Positions 15,126 through 43,943 of a stretch of DNA of 64,000 nucleotides are shown one piece after another; the stretch's first letter is position 1; every line of letters starts with the position of its first letter. This DNA is from an uncultured Candidatus Saccharibacteria bacterium. Its GTDB lineage: Bacteria; Patescibacteriota; UBA1384; DTJR01. Both the position numbers and the translations under genes were made by a program. Location of the stretch: the NCBI GenBank assembly GCA_964487045.1, contig CAZAOT010000001.1:215863-279862 (forward strand). Reading direction: 5' to 3'. A model generated the notes under the pieces. The model searched no databases. It was not told the DNA's origin and saw only the letters and a list, made by a program, of their open reading frames with translations.

Positions 15126-15497
15126 ATGTCAAACAAAGATCAAAACTCAAAATCCAAGAAATACGGATTAGGCGAAAGGTGTTCAAAATTTGGGGAAGAA
15201 ATTATTTTATTTTGTAAGACAATTAAAGAATCTAACATCAATAAAAGCATTATTAATCAATTAATAAGATCCGGAACCTCAATTGGTGCAAATTATATGG
15301 AAGCTGATTGTGCCGAAAGTAAGAAGGACTTTTATCACAAGATAGGTATTTGTAAAAAAGAGTCAAAAGAATCTACGCATTGGCTCAGGATGCTAGCAAC
15401 TTCGGAACAGCATTTAAAAGCTAATTGCAGGAGACTATGGCAAGAAGCTCATGAATTAACATTAATCTTCTCAACAATTATTAAAAATAGAACTTAG
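15126..15497 (+). CDS. four-helix-bundle protein (the family also called 23S rRNA intervening-sequence protein)
   Basis: Characteristic of the family: ...IRSGTSIGANYMEADCAESKKDFYHKIGICKKESKESTHWLRM... Confidence 0.65.
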   Translation: MSNKDQNSKSKKYGLGERCSKFGEEIILFCKTIKESNINKSIINQLIRSGTSIGANYMEADCAESKKDFYHKIGICKKESKESTHWLRMLATSEQHLKANCRRLWQEAHELTLIFSTIIKNRT

Positions 15498-16072: not shown

Positions 16073-16306
16073 ATGTCAAACTTCAAGCCTACTTAGTCAC
16101 CCTTGTCCTTCCGTAGGTCGCACTGCTCATAGAGGATATAATCCCTTGATCAGTAAGACCGAAGGAGGAAGACCTAATTTACAGGGTTAATATTATCAGC
16201 TTTTTATTAAATATAAAGAGTTTACGAAAGAAAACAGCCCCGGACGCGTCATCCTGGTAGAACCAGTCTGACGGCCGGGGCCGTTGGTGGCTAGTTGCCT
16301 AGCCAA

Positions 16307-16732
16307 CTACTCCCAGGAGAGCCAGGGGGCGGCAGAGGTGTCGGCAACCTTCATCAGGATTGCCAACGCGGTAGATGCGACGGGCCCCGGGAAGGCAACC
16401 GTTCCGCCTTCCTTGCGAATACCGACCTTGAGGCCAACAGCCTCAGCGGCGGCGCAGATGAAGCCGTGGCCGCGCGAGAAGATGTTGGCGGCGCCATCGA
16501 GCGCCAGTTCATGGCCATGGATGAGCACGTTGTCGCCATCCTGAAACATGTACACGAAGGTCGCGTTGGACTTGTCCTTGGCGACCTCCATCACGAACAT
16601 CTCGGCCTCGATCTCTCGGCTCTCCTCGTCAACTTCGCCTTGCTCATTCAGCGATACGACAGTCAGAGGCAGTGACCTTCTCATCTGAAACTCCAACCGC
16701 TTTAGGGGCGCGGCAACCCCATGGCTTGTCAA
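16307..16732 (-). CDS. GC-rich island B, gene 2: hypothetical protein of 125-141 aa
   Basis: GC-rich ORF. An internal Met at 16684 has the better SD (GGAG). Upstream at about 16800-16830 is a TTGACT-17-TATAGT promoter. Downstream (minus strand) is the gccccgg/ccggggc hairpin followed by a T-run. Confidence 0.5.
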   Translation of the reverse strand: MTSHGVAAPLKRLEFQMRRSLPLTVVSLNEQGEVDEESREIEAEMFVMEVAKDKSNATFVYMFQDGDNVLIHGHELALDGAANIFSRGHGFICAAAEAVGLKVGIRKEGGTVAFPGPVASTALAILMKVADTSAAPWLSWE

Positions 16733-16985
16733 ACTTCATGCAAGGGAGTACTAAGCTTCCTCCTCAAGCAAACATAAGACTATACCACAAAACAGCCTAA
16801 AAGTCAAGCCAAGTGAGTATTCTCACCTGGGTAACCCCTCACTCTAGACACGAAGTGAACGTGAACGAATTGTTCGAGTGAACTTTCGAGTTAGAGGGAG
16901 TGGTCAAGATTAGGGCTGTTTATAAAGAGGAAGGCCCCCTGTCGAATGACGGGGGGCCTGGTGGTTGCGAACAGAATCAGCGGGG

Positions 16986-17777
16986 CTATACCTTGGGAAA
17001 GATGGAGGCGCAGTCGCGCCCGGTGAACATGTTTTCGGGCGTGATCTGGACAGAGCGCCCGATGGCGTCGAGGTTGGGAGAGCATGCCAGAAGAACTTCG
17101 CGTAGATTCCACATGTTCATCCAGATATCCTTGAGCGCCTCAATGGCGCCGTCGGTTCCCTTCAGGAATAGTCCGTTCGGTGGGCCCTTGATGGGCCATT
17201 CCTTCAAGTGCTCCGATCCGGTCAGCCAACGCTCAAGCGCCAGAACCTCCTGAGGGAAGACGACTTTTTGCCCGGTGTTGTTCTGGCACTGGAGCCTGAC
17301 CTCATCAATGATGCTAGGGTCACTGGCCGAGGCCCGACCCTTGAAAGTAACGCGCACATTCTTGGCGGTGGTGTCGCGGACTCGTTGCCACTCGCAGTAC
17401 CAGTCGGCGAAGTCTTCCTTGATTGAGAGCTTGCAGACATAGGCTGATTGGAGCGTACTCCTTCGATCTCGGGAGTGATTGGACATGATCGGGTCGGGTG
17501 TGTGCTCGATGGACAAGCGTGGACCGAAGAGATGGCATCTCGTCAGGCCTCTGGCGAGGTTGACACAACGAGTGTTGCCAATGTAGTGAAGGAACCTAGT
17601 TCCTTGAGCTTCCGGACTCTGTAGTCGGATATCCATCTCGTCGCCGGAGGCGTTGGCCTGAATGTAGGCTGCGGCGCCTCCCTTGAAGCCTGGCACGATC
17701 TCGATGTCTCCTTGTAACGGTTTGAGCGCTTCGATGTCCGGAAGGCTGAACAGCTCGGGGGTCGGCGGCTGCACCAT
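16986..17777 (-). CDS. GC-rich island B, gene 1: hypothetical protein of 263 aa
   Basis: GC-rich ORF. AAGGAG lies 5 nt upstream of the ATG. No family was recognised. Confidence 0.5.
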   Translation of the reverse strand: MVQPPTPELFSLPDIEALKPLQGDIEIVPGFKGGAAAYIQANASGDEMDIRLQSPEAQGTRFLHYIGNTRCVNLARGLTRCHLFGPRLSIEHTPDPIMSNHSRDRRSTLQSAYVCKLSIKEDFADWYCEWQRVRDTTAKNVRVTFKGRASASDPSIIDEVRLQCQNNTGQKVVFPQEVLALERWLTGSEHLKEWPIKGPPNGLFLKGTDGAIEALKDIWMNMWNLREVLLACSPNLDAIGRSVQITPENMFTGRDCASIFPKV

Positions 17778-17880
17778 CTTGACTCCTTCTTGGCGGCTTA
17801 CCAGTAGGCCATGCCCGAACGGGTTGGGGAAGCGTCAACTATTGGTCCTGAGAAAACGGACATATGTTTATTCGCTGATC

Positions 17881-17926
17881 CTATCCGCCAAAGATCAAGT
17901 ATTCTCCTGATCACTGGCGGATAAGT
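17881..17926. promoter_or_regulatory. imperfect 17-bp inverted repeat (cTATCCGCCAaaGATCA...TGATCActGGCGGATAag), a candidate operator upstream of island B gene 1
   Basis: The palindrome was read directly. It lies about 100-150 bp upstream of the 17777 start and is adjacent to and overlaps a TTGACA. Confidence 0.45.
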
Positions 17927-18034
17927 ATGTCAAAGAACATTCAAAAGCACTCCTTGTAAAATCTTCACCAATACAATAACCTTATTTGTTAATATTTACA
18001 AAATTTCTCTCTTGATATATAATTGCTCCAGTTA

Positions 18035-18109
18035 GCGGGTGTAGTTCAGCGGTAGAACGCTTCCTTGCCAAGGAAGAGGCCGTGGGTTCAAGTCCCATCA
18101 CCCGCTCCA
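18035..18109 (+). tRNA. tRNA-Gly (GCC)
   Basis: Acceptor GCGGGTG/CACCCGC, anticodon loop TTGCCAA, T-loop TTCAAGT, encoded CCA. A terminator hairpin (aaccgcc-acca-ggcggt + T-run) follows. Confidence 0.9.
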
Positions 18110-18231
18110 AACAAAATAACCGCCACCAGGCGGTAATTTTGTTTGAAAAATGGCTGTGGGACTTGAAGGCCGGAGGTGCGACGGCACCGAGGCCCGCCCT
18201 GAAGAAATTTCAGCAGAAATTTACTGAAGGG

Positions 18232-18251
18232 AAGTCCCATCACCCGCTCCA
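18232..18251 (+). repeat. 20-bp perfect direct repeat of the tRNA-Gly 3' end (aagtcccatcacccgctcca)
   Basis: Identical to 18090-18109. Additional 19-bp direct repeats (gggacttgaaggccggagg) lie at 18158-18176 and 18300-18318. Confidence 0.8.
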
Positions 18252-18435
18252 ATTGAAACAGATGGCCCAGTAGGGCCATATTTTGGTGGAGTAAAAATTG
18301 GGACTTGAAGGCCGGAGGGCAACTGGTGCTTGATTTTGTAATTTCTCGATGTTCTCCGTTTGTTCGGGGTTGATTTTTACTCCTAACAGGTGTAGACCCT
18401 TGACAAGCTTGCTCAGTAGTGTACACTATTTCCCG

Positions 18436-18669
18436 ATGTTAAAAATCCTTGTTTGGATAGAATATATTGTTTCTGTCTTGATCATTGCTTCGGTGCTACT
18501 TCAGCACCGCGGTACTGGTTTGGGCGGAGCATTTGCAAGTTCTGCAAACGCTTATCGCTCCAAGAGGGGCATAGAGAAGTTTTTGTTTAACGCTACCATC
18601 GCTTCTGCGGTCGTACTGGTAGCAGTAACCCTAACTCATTTGTATCTTCGCCTAAAAGGCATAAGTTAA
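18436..18669 (+). CDS. secG: preprotein translocase subunit SecG
   Basis: Sequence MLKILVWIEYIVSVLIIASVLLQHRGTGLGGAF. The promoter is TTGACA-16-TACACT at 18401-18428. Confidence 0.8.
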   Translation: MLKILVWIEYIVSVLIIASVLLQHRGTGLGGAFASSANAYRSKRGIEKFLFNATIASAVVLVAVTLTHLYLRLKGIS

Positions 18670-20219: not shown

Positions 20220-20319
20220 TTATATCAAAAATAAATACTACTCAATTTTATTAAACCTGTAAAGAAAAGGGGCCGCGGTCGATGAAAATCGCGGCCCCTA
20301 GGCACAGGCTGGACTGAGA

Positions 20320-20610
20320 TCATCCGCCTTGCATCTTTGCGAATGCCCCGCGGATAAGTGTTTCCAGATGAGTGTAGTAACCGTAGCCTCTCGTGTCGAG
20401 TGGCTGGCCGTCCAGGTACTGTGCACGCGAGGGCGAACCCTCGCATACTGTCTTGCCATCAATGACAACTGGCAGCAGATGTCGGTGGTCGTCGTCATGA
20501 CCACCCCAGTTCAGGATGCCTTCGCTCAATGACCCGGTGATCTTTTCGAGCTTGGCGACGTCGTTGTCGGGAGGTACGTCTAGTCCACACTTATCGCATT
20601 TTGCAGACAT
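20320..20610 (-). CDS. GC-rich cassette C: 96-aa hypothetical protein with an N-terminal CxxC
   Basis: TTGACT-17-TATAAA promoter and AAGGAG SD upstream. A strong terminator lies downstream (ggggccgcg...cgcggcccc + T-run, 20255-20298). Confidence 0.5.
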   Translation of the reverse strand: MSAKCDKCGLDVPPDNDVAKLEKITGSLSEGILNWGGHDDDHRHLLPVVIDGKTVCEGSPSRAQYLDGQPLDTRGYGYYTHLETLIRGAFAKMQGG

Positions 20611-25100: not shown

Positions 25101-25730
25101 ATGAAAAAAATTGGTTGGTCTAATAAAATGGCATATGCGGTCGGTCTTTTAGCTACCGACGGTCATCTTTCAATTGATAAACGACATATAGATCTAACTT
25201 CAAAGGATGTCGAACAGCTGAAAAATTTTATGCAGGCGATTGGGAGACAATATATCATAGCTAAAAAATCTTCTGGTTATACGGGTGAGCTTTGTAGCCG
25301 AATTCAATTTAGTGACGTATCGCTGTATCGGTGGTTGCTGAGTATCGGCTTCAAGCAGAAAAAGACTGATGAGATGAGCGATTTAAAGATCCCTCAAAAG
25401 TATTTCTTTGATTTTCTTAGAGGACATTTCGATGGTGACGGGTCTATATACTCATACTTTGATCCTCGCTGGAAAAGTAGTTTTATGTATTACATAACAT
25501 TTATAGCTAAGAACAGAGATCATATTGTTTGGTTACAAAAAATGATTGAAAAATTAAGTGGCGTAAAAGGAAGGATTGGATTGGGAAAGCGTGTATATCA
25601 AGTAAGATTCGCCAAGAAAGAGAGCAAGGTTCTTATCAATAAGATGTACAAAAGAACTGACGCCCTTTATTTAACTAGAAAATATGATAAAATCTTAAAG
25701 ATCCTTGAAATTGATGCGGATGTGCTGTAA
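25101..25730 (+). CDS. LAGLIDADG homing endonuclease (two-motif)
   Basis: Motifs LLATDGHL and FDGDGSIY. The last 15 nt and stop codon overlap the 5' end of tRNA-Leu(GAG). Confidence 0.8.
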   Translation: MKKIGWSNKMAYAVGLLATDGHLSIDKRHIDLTSKDVEQLKNFMQAIGRQYIIAKKSSGYTGELCSRIQFSDVSLYRWLLSIGFKQKKTDEMSDLKIPQKYFFDFLRGHFDGDGSIYSYFDPRWKSSFMYYITFIAKNRDHIVWLQKMIEKLSGVKGRIGLGKRVYQVRFAKKESKVLINKMYKRTDALYLTRKYDKILKILEIDADVL

Positions 25731-25802
25731 TTGGTAGCCAGGCGGCCTTGAGGAGGCCGTGTCCGTAAGGGCGTGGAGGTTCGAGTCCTCTCATCCGCAC
25801 CA
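25716..25802 (+). tRNA. tRNA-Leu (GAG), type II
   Basis: Acceptor GCGGATG/CATCCGC, anticodon loop TTGAGGA, long variable arm, T-loop TTCGAGT, CCA. Confidence 0.8.
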
Positions 25803-31937: not shown

Positions 31938-32034
31938 CTAGTATTTCATAAACGCACGGCTCTGGAGTAATTCAGAGCCGTGCGTTTATAAGAAACCACC
32001 TGCTCTTTGAGAGTTAGGTTAAGGAGGAACGGCC

Positions 32035-33717
32035 GTGGGCAAGCTGTGGCTGGCTCTTGTATTGCTTGTTGTTGTCTCGATGTCGTTTGCTGCTCAAGAC
32101 TTCGCAGTCGAGTGGCATGTCCACTCGAGCACCTTCTCGGACGGTACTCGCACCCCGCTACAACTCGTGCTCGATTCGCTTTGCCAAGTGGTGGTCTTCT
32201 CAGATCACCTCGACGGCATAGCAGCAAAGGGGGCGAAGCTCTACCTCGACACCATCAGAAGGTTGTCGGGTACAGCTGGGACGCTGGCTATTCCTGCGGT
32301 CGAAGTGACTTGTGGTAAACTTGAGAGCTCATATGATGTGATTGCTCTTGGCCTGAACGAAGAATCGCTTGACGAGCTGATTTCGCTTTATCAGAGAGGG
32401 GCTTTCAACTACTCCGAGCAAGGGCTACCTGCCCTTAAGGCGGTTGCAAACCGCTACAACTTGATCCTCATCGCTGCCCATCCGGACAGTAAGGACACCC
32501 TGCTTGGCAAGGGCATCCCTTTCCATCTCAACGAGAACGCCAAGTATGTCGACGGGTTTGAGATGTTCGATTCGAACCACATCGGTTTTGACGCGGACAA
32601 ATTTCCCGAAAACTGCCTGCCGTTCTACAGGCACTTTGACCGGCTAACGCTCACAGCTGGCAGCGACTTTCATTTCCTGATTCACGGCTCATTGCCAACC
32701 GAGTCTTGGCGTGAAGCGCCAATGACCCGGGTCATCCTCGACGACGACGCCTCGCTCACCGAAGAGTCGATCACTGACTCAATCCGGCGTGGCCGAACTT
32801 ACGTCTCGAGTCTGCGCAGCGCTCGGCTAGTCGAAGCGAGTGCGATGCCCGGCGGAGTGTGGAAGCTCGCCGAGCCGCTCTATATGGCTTGCCGAGGAGT
32901 AGAGGAAGGCGATTTTCTCTACGACAAGGTCAATGTGATTGCGGTCACCGGGAAGACGTGGCACAAGCGGAGCTTTCAACCTCGCTTTGATGGTGACAAG
33001 TTGGTGCTGAAGATCTCGGCTGATCAGTTTCCCCCTGGCATCAAGAGTCTGAACGTAGACTTCTGCGGGCGGATCCTCACCTCGACGATTCTCACCGCGC
33101 CGGCGCCAACTGCTCCGGTGCAGTCATCGCCTGTCGCTTCCGCACCCTCGCCGGTCCAGCCGACCCCTCAACCCGCACCTCAGCCTGCCGCCACATCCTC
33201 ACCAAACGCTAATGTCGATCCGAAGTACGGCATCAATCTTGCGGCGTATAAGTACCGCTTCCGCGGTACACAGGGGAATGTCTTTGGCAACACGAACGAG
33301 TATCTGGTCGTCTTTAATGACGACCTCAAGGGTAAAGTCTGGCATCAATTCGTGGCAGAATTTCCGCCGATTGTTCTCGACGTACAGCTCGAGATGAAAA
33401 GCGACGGCCACGCCCAATGTGTAGAGCTGTTCGACTTTGAACAGACCGCGAACGCCTGGCTTCCCAACCGTGCCCGGGATCCTCGCAAGACCGACCCATA
33501 CCTTGATGAACTGAGGTGTTGGAGTGAAGGTGACTGGGATCTGATCCCCAAAGGGAAGGCGCGTTTGAGAGTCAGCATTGATCCCAAGAGCCTCATGGCG
33601 TCGCACTGCGACACGTCGGGGCTTGCCTATACGATCAAGTCGATCCCTGCCTGGGCCTACGCGTTCAATCGGGGGTTTAACTACTACTATGACCAGGTTT
33701 TCCTAAAGCGTTTCTAG
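32035..33717 (+). CDS. GC-rich cassette G: secreted PHP-domain phosphoesterase with a Pro/Ala-rich linker and a C-terminal domain
   Basis: GTG start with AAGGAGG 7 nt upstream, then a signal peptide. PHP motifs HVHSSTFSDG, AAHP and SDFH are present. A strong terminator lies at 33745-33781. Confidence 0.6.
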   Translation: MGKLWLALVLLVVVSMSFAAQDFAVEWHVHSSTFSDGTRTPLQLVLDSLCQVVVFSDHLDGIAAKGAKLYLDTIRRLSGTAGTLAIPAVEVTCGKLESSYDVIALGLNEESLDELISLYQRGAFNYSEQGLPALKAVANRYNLILIAAHPDSKDTLLGKGIPFHLNENAKYVDGFEMFDSNHIGFDADKFPENCLPFYRHFDRLTLTAGSDFHFLIHGSLPTESWREAPMTRVILDDDASLTEESITDSIRRGRTYVSSLRSARLVEASAMPGGVWKLAEPLYMACRGVEEGDFLYDKVNVIAVTGKTWHKRSFQPRFDGDKLVLKISADQFPPGIKSLNVDFCGRILTSTILTAPAPTAPVQSSPVASAPSPVQPTPQPAPQPAATSSPNANVDPKYGINLAAYKYRFRGTQGNVFGNTNEYLVVFNDDLKGKVWHQFVAEFPPIVLDVQLEMKSDGHAQCVELFDFEQTANAWLPNRARDPRKTDPYLDELRCWSEGDWDLIPKGKARLRVSIDPKSLMASHCDTSGLAYTIKSIPAWAYAFNRGFNYYYDQVFLKRF

Positions 33718-33744
33718 CGCGTAGGGAGATCGAGGTTTGTTTTC

Positions 33745-33781
33745 ACGCCCAGCCGGGTTGTTTCCTGGCTGGGCGTTTTTC
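33745..33781 (+). terminator. intrinsic terminator (acgcccagccgg...ctggctgggcgt + TTTTT)
   Basis: Read directly from the sequence. Confidence 0.7.
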
Positions 33782-33972
33782 TTGAACAAATGTCTTTGTT
33801 CTGTTAAGATCGTGTAATAAATAAAGTAATATCCCGTCACTTTTCAACCTCTCGCAATATTCTCAATCTGAGAAATTTGCGGTCCCCTGTCAAACGGGTC
33901 AAGTAGGTTTCCAAAGTGAGGGACTTCCGGTCCAGCCCTTCGTGAAGAGCTGGACACGGAGCGGGAGTAAAC

Positions 33973-34449
33973 ATGCAGATTTCTAAAGCAAAAGATGGAC
34001 TCATTGAGATAAAAACCAAGTCAGCGATAATTCTGATCGATCATAAAATTATTATAAACGACGTCTCCTTGGAGGGCGCTGGGGAGTACGAAATTGGTGG
34101 GATTTCGATCGAAGGAATTGACGATAATATTTATATTTGCCAAGGCGAAGATATCAATTTTGCAATGGTTAATTTCATCGAAAAAATTTCCAAAGAATCG
34201 ATCGAAAAATTATCAAGCGTATCGCTACTTTTTGCAAGAGTTGATCAAAATGTTGATGCGGCAATTGAGCAGATCAGTCAAATTGAACCAAATCTTTGCG
34301 TTTATATTGGAGACGAACCTTCATATCAAAAAATAAAATCGGCCAGTATTGATGTCGATAAAACAGAAACTCTCAAAGTAAGTAAAAAAGATCTAGATGA
34401 GGCGGAGGGCTCATACTTTCTTGAAATAAACGATGCATCAAGCAAGTAA
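33973..34449 (+). CDS. hypothetical protein of 158 aa
   Basis: Backbone composition. It is preceded by a ~180-nt GC-richer structured leader. Confidence 0.45.
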   Translation: MQISKAKDGLIEIKTKSAIILIDHKIIINDVSLEGAGEYEIGGISIEGIDDNIYICQGEDINFAMVNFIEKISKESIEKLSSVSLLFARVDQNVDAAIEQISQIEPNLCVYIGDEPSYQKIKSASIDVDKTETLKVSKKDLDEAEGSYFLEINDASSK

Positions 34450-35382: not shown

Positions 35383-35470
35383 GGCGCGGTGTCGTAATCG
35401 GTAGCCGAGGCAGACTTAAAATCTGTTGGTCCTAAAGACCGTGTGGGTTCGAGTCCCACCCGCGCCACCA
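35383..35470 (+). tRNA. tRNA-Leu (TAA), type II
   Basis: Acceptor GGCGCGG/CCGCGCC, anticodon loop CTTAAAA, long variable arm, T-loop TTCGAGT, CCA. Confidence 0.8.
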
Positions 35471-35482
35471 TAGGGAGGATTT

Positions 35483-36175
35483 TTGCAAAAGTTGATCGAT
35501 ACAGAATTCTTCAAGAAATGGACGCATGATAGTGCTTATCTAATCGGCTATATATGTGCTGATGGTTGTGTACATAAGCGATCCAACAGGAATAATAGCT
35601 ATATTCTAACGATCACATCAAAAGATAAAGATCATTTGCACAAAATCAACACCATATTGTCATCTAATTATGCTATTTCAAAAAAAATCGGCGGTAGTGG
35701 ATCGATTTCCTACAATCTAAGTATTTCAAACACTGAGCTTTGCCTTGATCTAATAAATCTAGGGATAACTCCTCGTAAGACTTTCACCATAAGTAAAGTA
35801 GACGTTCCGGACTCTTTATTCTGCGATTTTTTGCGAGGTTATTTTGACGCAGATGGATCGATCTACATCTATAAGGTTAATAATACTTGGCAACTCAAGC
35901 TAGCTTTGGTTTCAGCTAGCAAGAACTTTTTGGAATTATTAGAGAGGGAAATATCTTTCAGACTTCAACTAGAGAGAAAAAATATTTATACGTTTCAGGG
36001 CAAGGGCAAGAACAATCCATTGCACTCGCTAGTTTTTTATATAAATGATGGGCAAAAATTCTTAAAATTTATTTACAAAAATAGTCCCCATATTTTTTTA
36101 GAAAGAAAGTACGAAGTCTTTAATAAATGGAAGACCATCAAAAGACGTAGCTATATATTAACAACTCAAAGTTGA
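35483..36175 (+). CDS. LAGLIDADG homing endonuclease (two-motif)
   Basis: Motifs YICADGCV and FDADGSIY. TTG start with AGGGAGG 7 nt upstream. It lies 12 bp downstream of tRNA-Leu(TAA). Confidence 0.75.
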   Translation: MQKLIDTEFFKKWTHDSAYLIGYICADGCVHKRSNRNNSYILTITSKDKDHLHKINTILSSNYAISKKIGGSGSISYNLSISNTELCLDLINLGITPRKTFTISKVDVPDSLFCDFLRGYFDADGSIYIYKVNNTWQLKLALVSASKNFLELLEREISFRLQLERKNIYTFQGKGKNNPLHSLVFYINDGQKFLKFIYKNSPHIFLERKYEVFNKWKTIKRRSYILTTQS

Positions 36176-39926: not shown

Positions 39927-40544
39927 TCAATAGAGCAAAGTACTCGTACTGGTACGAAAACCAATACTCCACTCAAGGTCGGAATAGATCTTTGCTTCGA
40001 TTGAGCCGAAGCGCTGACATATACCAACCTGGAAGTCAAAGTCGTCTAGGTTCGAAACGTCCAGGAAGCCCCGAGCGATAAAGTCGGTGCTTGATGTGAG
40101 TTTGGCGATGCGCCATTTCGGCAGAGAAAGGAAACCGGTCGGGTGCGAGTTGGGTAGCGCGATCGGATAGAGGAGCCGCAAATCGATATTTCTATCGAGG
40201 TACTGCAGCCCTGCGTAGAACTCCTCTTTCTGGATTGGGTCGTATCCCATTTCCTTGTCTCGATCGGATTCCCAGATTCCCGGTACGATATCGAGCATAA
40301 AGCGGTACGACGAGCGCCAGTCTTTAGGGATTGGCCAGGAAAACCTGACGTTCTTGGTCAGTGAGGTTGACGATTCGTAGTCGATTTCGAAGAGGAATAT
40401 CTGATCGTAGAAGTATCCTTTGACCAGACCGTCGCTCCACTCGGCCCCGACTTCGAAGGGTCGGTTGTCAATATCCTGCGCCCAAAGCGGCGTCAGGCAG
40501 AGCACGGCTACCGCAAGAGCGGCTAAACGTGTCACGCATGACAC
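39927..40544 (-). CDS. GC-rich cassette I: secreted hypothetical protein with a signal peptide and a C-terminal aromatic residue
   Basis: AAGGAGG SD. A terminator ctgcccgcc-gata-ggcgggcag + T-run lies on the minus strand. Confidence 0.5.
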   Translation of the reverse strand: MSCVTRLAALAVAVLCLTPLWAQDIDNRPFEVGAEWSDGLVKGYFYDQIFLFEIDYESSTSLTKNVRFSWPIPKDWRSSYRFMLDIVPGIWESDRDKEMGYDPIQKEEFYAGLQYLDRNIDLRLLYPIALPNSHPTGFLSLPKWRIAKLTSSTDFIARGFLDVSNLDDFDFQVGICQRFGSIEAKIYSDLEWSIGFRTSTSTLLY

Positions 40545-40655
40545 CTCCTTAGGTTGGCTTACTAGCTACACTATAGCACTATTTAGCCCGTTAGAAATTG
40601 CCGACGCCTTGTATGCGCCGATATTGTGTATTTATATCTTAGTCGGCATCGATTT

Positions 40656-41483
40656 CTAACGGGCCGAGAAATATGTCTCTACAAACTTTTTTGCCGCTTT
40701 GAGATTTTTTATCACCGCTTCTTCGGTGATATTTCCCTTCTTATCAGCATACTGTTCGCACCAAAGTTCGATTGAAATTGGACCGAAATATTTATCGGCC
40801 CTTAATTGACGCAAAAATTTTTTAAGTGGTAATTTGCCCTTGCCGGGAAGGAGATGGCAGTCTTCAATATTACCCGGCTTTTTCGGACTTGGTCTCATAT
40901 CAGAGTCAGAAAAATGAACATGGCCGACTTTTTCTTTAATTTTTTCATAATACTGCATAATATCCATTTCGGCAGTTGCGATGTGGGATGTATCTAAATT
41001 TATAGACTCAAAAGCCTGCATCACGTCGAAGTGATAGCTCGGATTGAGAGTATTGCCAGAGGTGAAATCATCGCGTTTGGTCGCATTTTCAATCACCACT
41101 TTAACTGGTTTGGCAAGCTTGAAGACACTCTTTTGATTTTCAATCAACCAAGTGACGTATTGCGGATCAGAGTAATCCCAAGAATGCAAAATTAAATATT
41201 TTGCCTTCAGCTCCTTGGCGAGTTTAATCGATTTCTCGAGTCTATTTTTCCAGTCGCCCCAAGAATAAACAAATTCCATCGCTGAGTGAATTGATGTGAC
41301 CTTGAGGGAAAATTTTCGCTCTAAGCGTTTAATGTATTTGGAGTCTTGAGAGTCGAGTCGGTCATCGATAATTAATTCGATATTCTTAAATCCAGCTTTT
41401 TTCGCAACCTCAAAGAACCGGTATAGCCCATATCGGTGACAAGATCCGGTCGATAAAGTCAATTGATTTTTAAGTGTAGCCAT
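40656..41483 (-). CDS. sugar phosphate isomerase/epimerase (xylose-isomerase-like TIM barrel)
   Basis: AP-endonuclease-2/XylA-like TIM-barrel pattern in backbone composition. Confidence 0.6.
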   Translation of the reverse strand: MATLKNQLTLSTGSCHRYGLYRFFEVAKKAGFKNIELIIDDRLDSQDSKYIKRLERKFSLKVTSIHSAMEFVYSWGDWKNRLEKSIKLAKELKAKYLILHSWDYSDPQYVTWLIENQKSVFKLAKPVKVVIENATKRDDFTSGNTLNPSYHFDVMQAFESINLDTSHIATAEMDIMQYYEKIKEKVGHVHFSDSDMRPSPKKPGNIEDCHLLPGKGKLPLKKFLRQLRADKYFGPISIELWCEQYADKKGNITEEAVIKNLKAAKKFVETYFSAR

Positions 41484-41583
41484 TTGAGCAAAATATTACT
41501 AAAAATAAGGTTCAATGTAAACAAAACGGGCCACCCAAGCTATGCAAGGGTGGCCCGTAGAGGGTCCTGGTAGGTGGCTCTAC

Positions 41584-42246
41584 CTAGACCGGGTTGCCAT
41601 TGGCGTCAGCACCGGCGCCATCTGTGTTGACCGAGTAGTCGTTCTTCGTCTCGGTCGTGGTCGTGCGGGTGCCGGCGTTCGAGGCGTTGTCGGCCACGTT
41701 GGCCGTGCCACCCATGCTGCCTTCGGCGGCGGACGAGGTGGTGCCTCCCTCGGCCGAAACCGTCGGGGAAGCAGTGGCGCTCACGCCACTCACGAGCGGC
41801 CCGCTCCACAGCCCATTGGGCAGGGAGAGGGTCAGGTTGATCGTGGGCACAGTCGGCGGCTGACTGCGGAGAGCGTTCAGCTCTCGCCGCATCAGCACCA
41901 GCGCGATCAGGCCCGCGATAAGGCCAAGGGCCAGTCCGATGAGGACTGCCATGACCCAGGAGTTGTCCCGCCAAATCTGCTCCGCCGCCGCGACGGCCAT
42001 CGCCCAAGCCTCCGCGCGAGTCGCGTTGGCGTTGGGGCGGAGCGTACCGTCGGGGTACCCGTTCAGGTTCCCCTGACCGGTGCCCTTGTTCCATGTGGGC
42101 TGGGCCCAGGCGGGCGCGGTCTCACCGGTGTTGAGGTTCGTGAAGTTGATCGGTCCAGAGGAAGGGATCCACGGCCGATCAGTCTGAGCGAACGCGACGG
42201 ACGACAGGAGAACGACAGTGATCACGGCAATGATGGTGCGGGACAT
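41584..42246 (-). CDS. GC-rich cassette J: secreted protein with an S-layer-homology (SLH) domain, then a TM helix and a Ser/Thr/Gly-rich tail
   Basis: SLH signature GYPDGTLRPNANATRAE. The promoter TTGACA-17-TATACT (42381-42409, minus strand) is near-identical to the cassette F promoter. Terminator gggccaccc...gggtggccc at 41529-41557. Confidence 0.55.
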   Translation of the reverse strand: MSRTIIAVITVVLLSSVAFAQTDRPWIPSSGPINFTNLNTGETAPAWAQPTWNKGTGQGNLNGYPDGTLRPNANATRAEAWAMAVAAAEQIWRDNSWVMAVLIGLALGLIAGLIALVLMRRELNALRSQPPTVPTINLTLSLPNGLWSGPLVSGVSATASPTVSAEGGTTSSAAEGSMGGTANVADNASNAGTRTTTTETKNDYSVNTDGAGADANGNPV

Positions 42247-42380
42247 GAGTTGCCTCCCGGCAAGTGTAGTTGCCGCCTCTATACCGAGGTCGGCGTGTAT
42301 CTTTACCCCAGAGCCACCTGGGGATTAAGAACTAATTGTCAAATGCCACATTGATGAGCTTCTCACCAACGTAACGAAGC

Positions 42381-42650
42381 AGTATAGCACAAAATAGCTG
42401 TTTTGTCAATCCTGGAGCTAATTAATCGCCGAAGGCACCGCTTCCAAAAGATGATTTTTCGCTTCTTGCGCGAGTAGTGCCGCAAATCTGTCGGCTCGAG
42501 TGCTCCCGGGAAAGAAAAATCATACTTTTGAGCGTGTTGCGCTTTTTGAGTGGAGCAAAAAGCTAATCCATCAAACCTAGGAACTTGCCCGCAACAAGTT
42601 CTTGGGGTTTCGACATTAACTGCGAGCTTTTAGCTCGCAAAATTTCTTTC
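42381..42650 (-). repeat. copy 4 (partial) of the recurrent structured element, carrying the cassette J promoter
   Basis: Shares the terminal hairpins tgcgagc-N5-gctcgca and aaacctagg..cccgcaa..ccttggggttt, plus the promoter block. Confidence 0.55.
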
Positions 42651-42686
42651 TTTTTACTCTTTCATAAAAGTGCTAAAATAAAACAA

Positions 42687-43943
42687 ATGGGCATATTCGA
42701 TATTTTTAAGGGTTCAGAGGACTACTCTAATTACGCTATCTCGCTAGATATCGGAACTGAGTTTGTAAAAACGCTTATTTTTAAGGTTGAAGGTGATCAG
42801 GCTCATGTGCTTGGCATAGGCAAGCAGCGCCAAAGGTTAGCTGATATTCAGGGCGGAGTTGTCACCGATATTTATGGAGTAATTCGAAACTGCGAAACTG
42901 CGCTTGATCAGGCTGCTACTCAGGCTAAAATTCTGCCCCAACAGGTTATTATCGGTATTGCCGGAGAATTGGTCAAAGGTATTACGACCGATGTGAAATA
43001 CACCAGACCAGATCAAAACAAAAAAATCTCGATGGACGAGCTGACCGAGATCGTCAATCGCATCCAAAAACAAACCTATGACCGCGCTAGAAAAATTCTT
43101 GCTTATGAAACAGGTCATCGAGAAGTTAATGTAAAACTGGTTAATTCGGCGGTCGTGGATGTAAAAATCGACGGATATCACATTACCAATCCGCTTGGTT
43201 TTCAGGGAAAAGAGATCGAGGTTAGCGTCTTTAACGCCTTTGCGCCAAATGTTCACTTGGGAGCGCTTCAAACGGTCGCCGAGAGTTTGGATCTAGACTT
43301 GCTTTCGATCGCTGCCGAGCCATTTGCGGTTGCAAGATGTATGGGCTCAGATCAGGAAAGCGAATTTTCAGCTATTTTCATTGATATTGGAGGCGGTACG
43401 ACTGACATCGCTGTCGTTTCCAAGGGTGGATTGGTTGGAACAAAAATGTTTGCCTTGGGAGGTCGCGCCTTTACCAAGAGAATTGCCCAAGTTTTAAATG
43501 AACCATTTTTAGAAGCAGAACAGGATAAATTAGACTATACTGCCGGCAAATTGGCCAAGGAAAAGCTGGATATTGTCGAAAAAGCAGTCAAGCAGGATTC
43601 GGATGTATGGCTAGCTGGCGTGCAACTCACACTCGAAGAGTTTTCGGATTTAGAGTTACTTCCAAGTAAGATTTTGCTTTGTGGAGGAGGCTCTAATTTG
43701 CCAGATATAGAGAGGGTTTTGCTTGACGCAAAATGGGGGCGAAATGTCGCATTTGCCAAGAAGCCAAGTGTAGGATTTTTAAAACCAAAGAATGTCTCAG
43801 CGGTTGTCGATGATACGGGTGAGCTTAAGACCATCTCTGATGTTACACCGATGGCACTCGCAAATTTAGCCATTGATATGGTTGGCAAAGAAAAAGTAGT
43901 GGACGGATTATTCTCGAAGATTATAATGACTTTGAGGAGTTAA
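42687..43943 (+). CDS. ftsA: cell division protein FtsA-like (actin fold)
   Basis: Motifs DIGTEFVK..., IFIDIGGGTTDIAV and LCGGGS. The start is at MGIFDIF. Confidence 0.7.
   Translation: MGIFDIFKGSEDYSNYAISLDIGTEFVKTLIFKVEGDQAHVLGIGKQRQRLADIQGGVVTDIYGVIRNCETALDQAATQAKILPQQVIIGIAGELVKGITTDVKYTRPDQNKKISMDELTEIVNRIQKQTYDRARKILAYETGHREVNVKLVNSAVVDVKIDGYHITNPLGFQGKEIEVSVFNAFAPNVHLGALQTVAESLDLDLLSIAAEPFAVARCMGSDQESEFSAIFIDIGGGTTDIAVVSKGGLVGTKMFALGGRAFTKRIAQVLNEPFLEAEQDKLDYTAGKLAKEKLDIVEKAVKQDSDVWLAGVQLTLEEFSDLELLPSKILLCGGGSNLPDIERVLLDAKWGRNVAFAKKPSVGFLKPKNVSAVVDDTGELKTISDVTPMALANLAIDMVGKEKVVDGLFSKIIMTLRS

Follow-up and report, generated by a model that had tools for sequence, protein, structure and literature searches.

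A 142-bp insert in a tRNA-Gly gene as a probable member of a family of structured, non-autonomous cassettes in candidate-phyla-radiation bacteria

The tRNA-Gly(GCC) gene of the 64-kb stretch of DNA analysed here (the window) probably harbours in its T loop a 142-bp unit without cargo that belongs to a widespread family of non-autonomous mobile cassettes, hereafter called X elements. The insert, located at 18090-18231 on the plus strand, is a full-length and intact unit of an apparently undescribed family. The comparisons presented below directly support the existence of this family, its architecture, a structural constraint on the tRNA-sense strand, its patchy presence, the occurrence of empty and occupied sites and, for some members, the presence of cargo or a tandem arrangement.

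The tRNA-Gly(GCC) gene is intact and occupies positions 18035-18109 of the plus strand (ARAGORN; Rfam tRNA, 73.5 bits). Its last 20 nt (A1, 18090-18109), which probably derive from the insert, fall within a 21-nt sequence, the A box (AAGTCCCATCACCCGCTCCAA), that begins at A57, in the T loop, and is found in two 100% identical copies, at 18090-18110 and at 18232-18252. A second sequence of 20 nt, the B box (TGGGACTTGAAGGCCGGAGG), is also present in two 100% identical copies, at 18157-18176 (B1) and 18299-18318 (B2), and the start-to-start spacing is 142 nt for the A-box pair and the B-box pair alike. Both repeats had been noticed in a first-pass annotation of this DNA, as 20 and 19 nt respectively; they are exact and each is one nucleotide longer. 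Allowing up to three mismatches, each box occurs twice in the 64-kb window, and no match was obtained in 100 shuffles used as controls. The B box opens with TGGGACTTGAA, the exact reverse complement of tRNA-Gly positions 53-63 (TTCAAGTCCCA), which bears out the inverted T-arm copy that the same annotation had placed in the second repeat. In B1, specifically, TGGGACTT(GAA) complements the A box and provides the 5′ strand of a helix, P1, and GGCCGGAGG is the start of the X core. The two 46-nt stretches that lead from an A box to the following B box are unrelated in sequence, yet each forms a terminator-like hairpin. The first of these, T1 (18108-18145, plus strand; terminator scan), is borne by the insert and has its core stem at 18119-18134, followed by a T run; its inverted repeat, I1, has 17-nt arms that are 94% complementary and is unrelated in sequence to the second hairpin, T2. 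The 55-nt X part of the unit occurs once and is not repeated, and the insert as a whole has no open reading frame.

Comparison with related loci, designated here by L numbers, allows the insert to be told from the original gene end. In L006, a tRNA-Gly gene identical to that of the window is followed directly by AACAAAACAGATAGCCCGATAGGGCTATG, a terminator of the T2 type found in the window and in L001. T2 of the window (18246-18292, plus strand, core stem 18262-18279; terminator scan and fold) aligns both with T2 of L001 and with the terminator located behind the uninterrupted gene of L006, and is therefore a native-type tRNA-Gly terminator. Given the uninterrupted arrangement in L006, A2 (18232-18252), an exact 21-nt copy contiguous with this terminator, together with T2 is the original gene end, A2 being the displaced native 3′ end, and 18090-18231 the insert, made up of A1, T1, antiA1/B1 and the X core; the assignment draws on the spacing, the empty site in L006 and the fold, and the edges of the unit are ambiguous within the 21-nt repeat. 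In other words, the window locus appears to be an occupied insertion site in the tRNA-Gly T loop and L006 the corresponding empty site, the two states being drawn from different species-level relatives rather than from one population. The tRNA-Gly sequence of L011, which like L006 lacks the insert, is also identical to that of the window. Altogether, an X unit is missing from the tRNA-Gly gene in L003, L005, L006, L007, L011, L012 and L013, and in the 64-kb window, which holds seven tRNA genes, the covariance model of the core described below (R1) finds one X copy only. Of the integration scar proposed in the first-pass annotation, the insertion into the tRNA-Gly T loop stands, on the strength of the empty site, and no connection of the family with a tyrosine integrase was found.

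In the closest relative, L001 (84% identity of the SBP protein), the same order is observed, namely tRNA-Gly, T1′, a B-like box, a stretch of about 55 nt, A2 and T2′. T1 is wholly different in the window and in L001 despite the orthologous X cores, so that an extra exchange event has to be assumed, which counts against the reading as a mobile cassette. A further point against it is that neither an excised form nor polymorphism inside one population was seen. The B box follows the gene in which it resides: in L008, where tRNA-Gly has a different T arm, the downstream copy (CGATTCCCGCTACCCGCTCCA) agrees with the resident tRNA, and so does the B-like box (GGAATCGAA), as one example of the co-variation of B with the T loop of the resident tRNA that is seen in relatives. 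Moreover, at loci where A1 and A2 differ, antiA/B pairs with A1 as well as or better than with A2, and at two tmRNA loci this pairing amounts to 9/9 positions with A1 vs 5/9 with A2. These sequence relationships indicate that A2 is the decaying copy and that B stays matched to A1.

The second B box calls for a separate explanation. The segment antiA2 plus B2 (18287-18318, plus strand) consists of TGGAG, 7 nt, TGGGACTTGAA and GGCCGGAGG, and ends 12 nt into the core, against the native flank. The same antiA design is found in L001, L008, L010 and L015, and partial second copies analogous to B2 are present in L011 and L097. Since it has the canonical antiA design and stops 12 nt into the core at the native flank, this segment is a truncated second unit. 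B2 is the stump of that unit, and the reading of the shorter repeat as a second attL/attR-like pair has to be abandoned: the repeat combines the 5′ strand of the closing helix with the opening 12 nt of the core, its second copy belonging to the truncated unit. Further downstream, a motif of the native flank (ctccgtttgttcgggg, 18353-18369) is kept in relatives, and the native context outside the element (18400-18669, plus strand) comprises secG (18436-18669; Pfam SecG), preceded by a promoter-like site found by promoter scan at 18400-18427; synteny is preserved here in L001, L003, L006, L007 and L008. After secG comes an SBP_bac_5 gene (Pfam), the homologues of which belong to candidate-phyla-radiation (CPR) bacteria, one of them named Candidatus Berkelbacteria.

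The architecture of the window unit recurs at many other genes. In seven loci from Berkelbacteria-type MAGs, 12 of 32 tRNA genes are followed downstream by a copy of their own 3′ end, mostly of 21 nt; the tRNAs concerned are Gly, Phe, Val, Leu-GAG, Leu-CAG and Cys. Ten of these 12 tail copies lie 106-155 nt past the end of the tRNA, each preceded by an X core. The two exceptions, tRNA-Leu(GAG) and tRNA-Cys of L012, have gaps of 1203 and 294 nt, each holding a gene, and the tail copy of this tRNA-Cys is without an X core. The layout shared by the ten units starts with a hairpin, followed by antiA/B, which is complementary to the NCCA end of the tRNA and, past an internal loop, to the T stem and loop; next come GAAGGCCGGA, a GACG-loop hairpin, GAGGCGGGGTCGCG, a long hairpin with a C-AGCA-G cap, and TTGTGAC, after which the copy begins. 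As a side observation, the gene end and antiA are often separated by the mini-hairpin GCGAAGC (C-GAA-G), as in L054, L065, L097, L078 and L012. This motif is unusually stable in DNA, and its presence might hint, if weakly, at single-stranded DNA as the form that folds.

A scan of metagenome contigs with the core pattern returned at least 120 stretches. The X-bearing contigs number more than 100 and come from CPR bacteria, with X lying beside tRNA, tmRNA and other gene ends; one of the contigs is from Candidatus Paceibacterota and others are from Berkelbacteria-type MAGs, so that at least two CPR lineages carry X. Among the matches listed, 75 of the 116 cores with enough upstream sequence have a tRNA on the same strand ending no more than 200 nt upstream, with 15 amino-acid types represented, and for 30 cores a near-exact copy of the 16-mer following the core is found in the 3′ end of that tRNA. 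X usually lies 35-200 nt past a tRNA, whatever the type of the latter, and is invariably on the tRNA-sense strand. Across the family, the spacing between A1 and A2 ranges from 116 to 178 nt with a median of 146, a distribution in which the 142 nt of the window are typical; the window locus belongs to the family both by its match to the R1 core model and by its layout of A1, hairpin, antiA, core and A2.

Targets and arrangements vary within this frame. In L131 and L127, X comes after tmRNA, whose 3′ end is present a second time, and tandem units are found in L086 and L094 (tmRNA) and in L010. X also follows the stop codon of rplL; here A1 and A2 both encode KIELK and the stop, and they differ at synonymous sites only, which implies that one of the two copies is foreign. 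A mirror arrangement, in which a 5′ gene fragment and X precede the intact gene, is seen in L025, L024, L051, L032 and L041. Some units bear cargo: a DedA-like gene lies between A1 and antiA in L012, and in L047 the cargo amounts to about 1 kb plus two tRNAs and is G+C-rich.

The X core of the window (18157-18239, plus strand) is predicted, from the covariance model R1 and from covariation, to form a three-way junction. In particular, P1 is 18157-18164 paired with either A box; P2 (18168-18194) is composed of GGCC/GGCC closing a GGTGC-GACG-GCACC hairpin; and P3 (18197-18231) comprises CCCT/AGGG, a tandem G.A, a bulged A at 18223 and AAATTTC-AGCA-GAAATTT. The P3 of the window is a rarer 'type 2' variant with the base CCCUGAAG/CUGAAGGG and the tandem G.A, common to L001 and to the Leu-CAG unit of L014. 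Between the window and L001, compensatory changes are found in P2 (GGTGC-GACG-GCACC vs CCGC-GACG-GCGG) and in P3 (AAATTTC-AGCA-GAAATTT vs CAAATTA-AGCA-TAATTTG). When RNAalifold was applied to 13 units that had been found via their tRNA tail copies and not via the search pattern, the three-way junction was recovered with compensatory changes in 20 of 26 pairs. In a 63-sequence alignment (A4), 90% of cells are paired vs 72% in shuffles, double changes occur in 23 of 28 pairs, and the covariation score is 0.488, compared with 0.16 in shuffles and 0.09-0.13 in slid controls; none of 500 shuffles reached the observed value. As the metagenome set was gathered by sequence pattern, conservation of the pattern columns, among them two G.U pairs of P3, holds by construction; P2 and the variable parts of P3 lie outside the search pattern, and conservation and covariation there are therefore independent of it. 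One P3 position is G.U in 10 of the 13 independently found units, and on this ground the fold is specific to the tRNA-sense strand. The R1 model matches the window once, at 18157-18239, over model positions 1-83 with 67.5 bits and E = 7e-16, a score to be read knowing that the window sequence is one of the 63 used to build the model and that its P3 is a minority variant; in other loci R1 matches several copies per contig. Finally, the entire 142-nt unit folds, as a circle or as a line, into three arms, A1-T1-B, P2 and P3 (-62 kcal/mol, z = -7.3). The 83-nt core is thus under selection for structure and is not a product of decay.

Selection for structure could also mean that X is a structured RNA of tRNA operons, serving the host or acting in cis, for example as a trailer for 3′ processing, stability or termination. 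AntiA would then sequester the tRNA 3′ end or act as its mimic, with the duplicated tail serving as the 3′ strand of P1 instead of marking a scar. The strong covariation, the recurrent G.U in P3 (10/13), the tandem G.A of the window variant and the compensatory changes that kept the structure after the window and L001 diverged all speak for such a role, as do the constant placement of X on the sense strand just downstream of tRNAs and the loci in which X follows the tRNA without an intervening terminator. We nevertheless regard it as rather unlikely, since X is patchy across orthologous tRNAs, with one copy for the seven tRNAs of the window, and since the terminator-like T1 usually sits between tRNA and X. 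Moreover, A2 decays whereas B tracks A1, and X is also found at protein-gene ends and with cargo genes, in addition to the foreign gene-end copy at rplL.

From the above, and by analogy with known recombination systems, we infer that the units move as cassettes, by a mechanism that could take the following form. The unit would carry a replacement gene end (A1), its own terminator-like hairpin (T1), the antiA/B segment complementary to A1, and the X core; insertion would push the native 3′ end A2 and the native terminator T2 downstream, and the tRNA would stay intact because the unit supplies A1 as a replacement copy. In an excised circle or a concatemer, the joined unit ends, devoid of the 5′ part of the tRNA, would read CTGAAGGG followed directly by AAGTCCCATCACC and then by T1. 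Joining would place A directly 3′ of X, and antiA/A would become the closing helix of the junction. The resulting folded att-like site, whether RNA or single-stranded DNA, would hold the target sequence as a duplex, with the crossover at its junction-proximal edge, and an enzyme encoded elsewhere would recombine this site with the matching sequence of the target gene, in analogy with integron attC x attI and CTX/Xer recombination. The folded unit is formally like an integron attC site or the folded CTX attP. As to the acting form, the G.U pairs and the tandem G.A would favour RNA; the terminator-like T1 between tRNA and X would favour DNA and argue against co-transcription. A bolder reading, to be put forward only tentatively, is that of an undescribed CPR mobile cassette in which the three-way junction with its antiA guide directs insertion into gene ends and brings a repair copy, the catalyst being either a trans-acting enzyme or the nucleic acid itself.

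The strand-specific, RNA-like fold, together with the identity between the target sequence and the 3′ end of the putative RNA, might alternatively point to a SINE-like non-autonomous retroelement. An RNA of the form (T1-)antiA-X-A would anneal through its 3′ A to a nicked target, and target-primed reverse transcription by an enzyme supplied in trans would yield the order A1, X, A2. The partial copies of more than unit length (B2 of the window, L011, L097) resemble read-around products, and no recombinase is linked to X. Such an origin is improbable: reverse transcriptase is neither enriched near X nor found in the window, T1 would block transcription from the tRNA promoter, and the synonymous-only differences between A1 and A2 at rplL are not expected of a target-site duplication made at insertion. 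Snap-back synthesis, with antiA made from the target at insertion, would explain the layout and was considered as well, and the rplL differences contradict it. Other candidate identities of the core were also discarded. A minus-strand tRNA or pseudo-tRNA over B cannot form its T stem, and ARAGORN finds none; hammerhead, HDV-like and twister folds are incompatible with the order of the helices and the sequences of the junction, and Rfam returned none of them. P3 does resemble domain V of group II introns in its 9-bp lower stem, 3′ bulge and CGC with G.U, but the spacing from triad to bulge differs, there is no domain VI, and type 2 has the tandem G.A instead.

The mobile-cassette reading has to be compared with the integrative systems known to use tRNA genes, first of all with tyrosine-integrase islands and prophages. 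tDNA-targeting integrases include a class whose sublocation is the T loop (Islander), and X elements share with it the insertion in tRNA and tmRNA T loops, the supply of a replacement 3′ end, the displaced native fragment left at the far end, the identity block of about 21 nt and the tandem arrays at one tDNA. The displaced 3′ fragment starting in the T loop is present in the window (21 nt from position 57); an integrase inside the element or beside the tDNA is not. Unlike these islands, X elements measure 116-178 bp and have no integrase inside or linked in cis, a covarying 83-nt core abuts the crossover, a target-complementary segment is present, and the ends of protein genes are targeted too. 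The first-pass annotation had taken the roughly 120 bp between the A boxes for the remnant of an excised or degraded element, that is, for what is left of a classical tyrosine-integrase island or prophage. The block of 20-21 nt from T loop to 3′ end is indeed the classic footprint of a tDNA integrase, and the neighbouring tRNA loci are hypervariable among relatives. We give this origin little credence, because remnants decaying independently at dozens of tRNAs would not share one core, one antiA design and a length of 116-178 nt, because no integrase is enriched near 130 copies, and because the insert is standard for the family in length and layout, bears the marks of structural selection and fits R1 end-to-end at 67.5 bits, albeit as a member of the training alignment. 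As for a local tandem duplication or an assembly artefact, the 142-nt period shared by both repeats lends it a negligible probability at most, given the unrelated 46-nt A-to-B stretches, the unrepeated 55-nt X part and the presence of the same architecture in independent assemblies from NCBI, JGI, ENA and Logan.

Integron cassettes with their attC sites offer a second term of comparison. They too are promoter-less and enzyme-less, hold zero or one gene and form tandem arrays at a fixed site; attC, likewise, is an imperfect inverted repeat that folds on one strand and is recombined by a trans-acting enzyme, and the crossover falls at the 3′ repeat arm, on its inner edge. Unlike attC, X has no RYYYAAC...GTTRRRY core sites, its arms being TGGGACTT/AAGTCCCA here and varying with the target gene elsewhere. 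The central part of X is conserved in sequence, whereas attC conserves structure only, and X inserts inside tRNA, tmRNA and other genes, bringing a repair copy, which integron cassettes do not. Within the 64-kb window, no IntI integrase with an attI and Pc platform was found. Group II introns (EBS/IBS), IS200/IS605 elements with their PATEs and IS110 with its bridge RNA resemble X in their internal target-complementary segment, in their strand-specific fold and in that the element ends at hairpin feet; unlike X, they bring no replacement copy of the target. Intron domains, Y1/TnpB and an IS110 recombinase were searched for and not found; in particular, Y1 transposase and TnpB are absent from the 25 most frequent Pfam families in X-neighbouring ORFs, which together with the duplicated gene end sets X apart from PATEs. 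Finally, CIMEs and tycheposon satellites (Hackl et al.) are similarly devoid of an integrase, carry att-type repeats at tRNA genes, are presumably mobilised in trans, and occupy tRNA loci that are hypervariable hot spots of cargo; they are, however, kilobase-scale derivatives of identifiable integrase-bearing parents, whereas X has a structured core and no identified parent.

Searches for known families and for an enzyme were negative within their scope. Rfam 15, at gathering and permissive thresholds, returned only tRNA and tmRNA for the window region and 23 related loci, and no match overlapped X even at E <= 10. In IMG/VR, scans with the B box and with the core of either type, 1 or 2, were without matches, X was not found in phage and plasmid collections, and our literature search retrieved no description of it. 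Among the window ORFs scanned against Pfam, no integrase, reverse transcriptase or transposase domain was detected, including no match to Phage_integrase, in agreement with the first-pass annotation, which had reported no integrase gene there. Families of these three enzyme types are not enriched near the 130 X copies either, which likewise weighs against the mobile-cassette reading: the Pfam matches of the neighbouring ORFs, 141 of at least 220 aa and 150 of 75-219 aa, are to housekeeping families, plus two GIY-YIG.

The surroundings of the locus are variable in themselves. In the syntenic loci L001, L003 and L005-L008, the stretch between a gene of about 105 aa with tRNA-Cys and secG is hypervariable, with different genes in every relative and with tRNA-Cys, tRNA-Gly and tRNA-Leu(CAG) flipping orientation. 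In the window, a 2-kb island at 16080-17800, between tRNA-Cys (minus strand) and tRNA-Gly (plus strand), has a G+C content of 54% against about 41% for the genome and contains two ORFs of 141 and 263 aa with no Pfam match. Other G+C-rich patches are found at 20225-20610, with a 96-aa ORF beside tRNA-Leu(CAG) in a place that varies among relatives, and at 32000-34000 and 40000-43000 (a 560-aa ORF without Pfam match at 32035-33717, and 39927-42354). A 16-nt inverted repeat at 17882-17923 (TATCCGCCAAAGATCA / TGATCACTGGCGGATA), about 110 nt upstream of the promoter-like site of tRNA-Gly (17995-18023), may represent an operator or else mark the edge of the G+C-rich island. A 23S_rRNA_IVP gene (four-helix bundle) at 15126-15497 lies beside the variable tRNA-Cys region, and holds the same place in the P0002 contig.

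Elements of other types are also seen at tRNA genes. Two free-standing LAGLIDADG_3 homing-endonuclease-like ORFs abut tRNA-Leu genes of the window: the one at 25101-25730 ends inside tRNA-Leu(GAG) (25716-25802), and the one at 35483-36175 starts 13 nt past tRNA-Leu(TAA) (35383-35470). It would seem that the tRNA genes of this genome attract several kinds of selfish elements. In L012 (2972-3360, minus strand), the 21-nt copy of the tRNA-Cys 3′ end located 294 nt downstream is separated from the gene by a small GIY-YIG-like ORF, with a perfect palindrome (TCACGCGAAGCGTGA/TCACGCTTCGCGTGA) in place of X, and in L006 (2327-2575) a GIY-YIG gene abuts tRNA-Cys; this arrangement looks like a second kind of T-loop-targeting cassette. 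Lastly, 5′ fragments of tRNA-Leu or tRNA-Cys occur just upstream of intact genes in L001 (4578-4597), L005 (2446-2466) and L006 (2731-2749 and about 2830-2860), those of L006 corresponding to another tRNA-Cys allele (GGTCTGG...) than the resident gene (GGCGTCG...).

On a practical level, the tRNA fragments and pseudo-terminators of X units will confuse the annotation of tRNAs, islands and terminators in CPR genomes. To our knowledge, CPR bacteria have tiny genomes with few recognised mobile elements, and no general route of gene exchange is known for them. Their tRNA loci vary in gene content among close relatives, and an enzyme-less structured cassette could be one such route of exchange. X elements would insert in tRNA, tmRNA and other conserved gene ends and repair the gene that they split, and the conserved core lying beside a target-matching segment makes them a candidate for a new chemistry of guided recombination or insertion. 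If true, this would represent a programmable insertion system of an integron-like or ribozyme-like kind.
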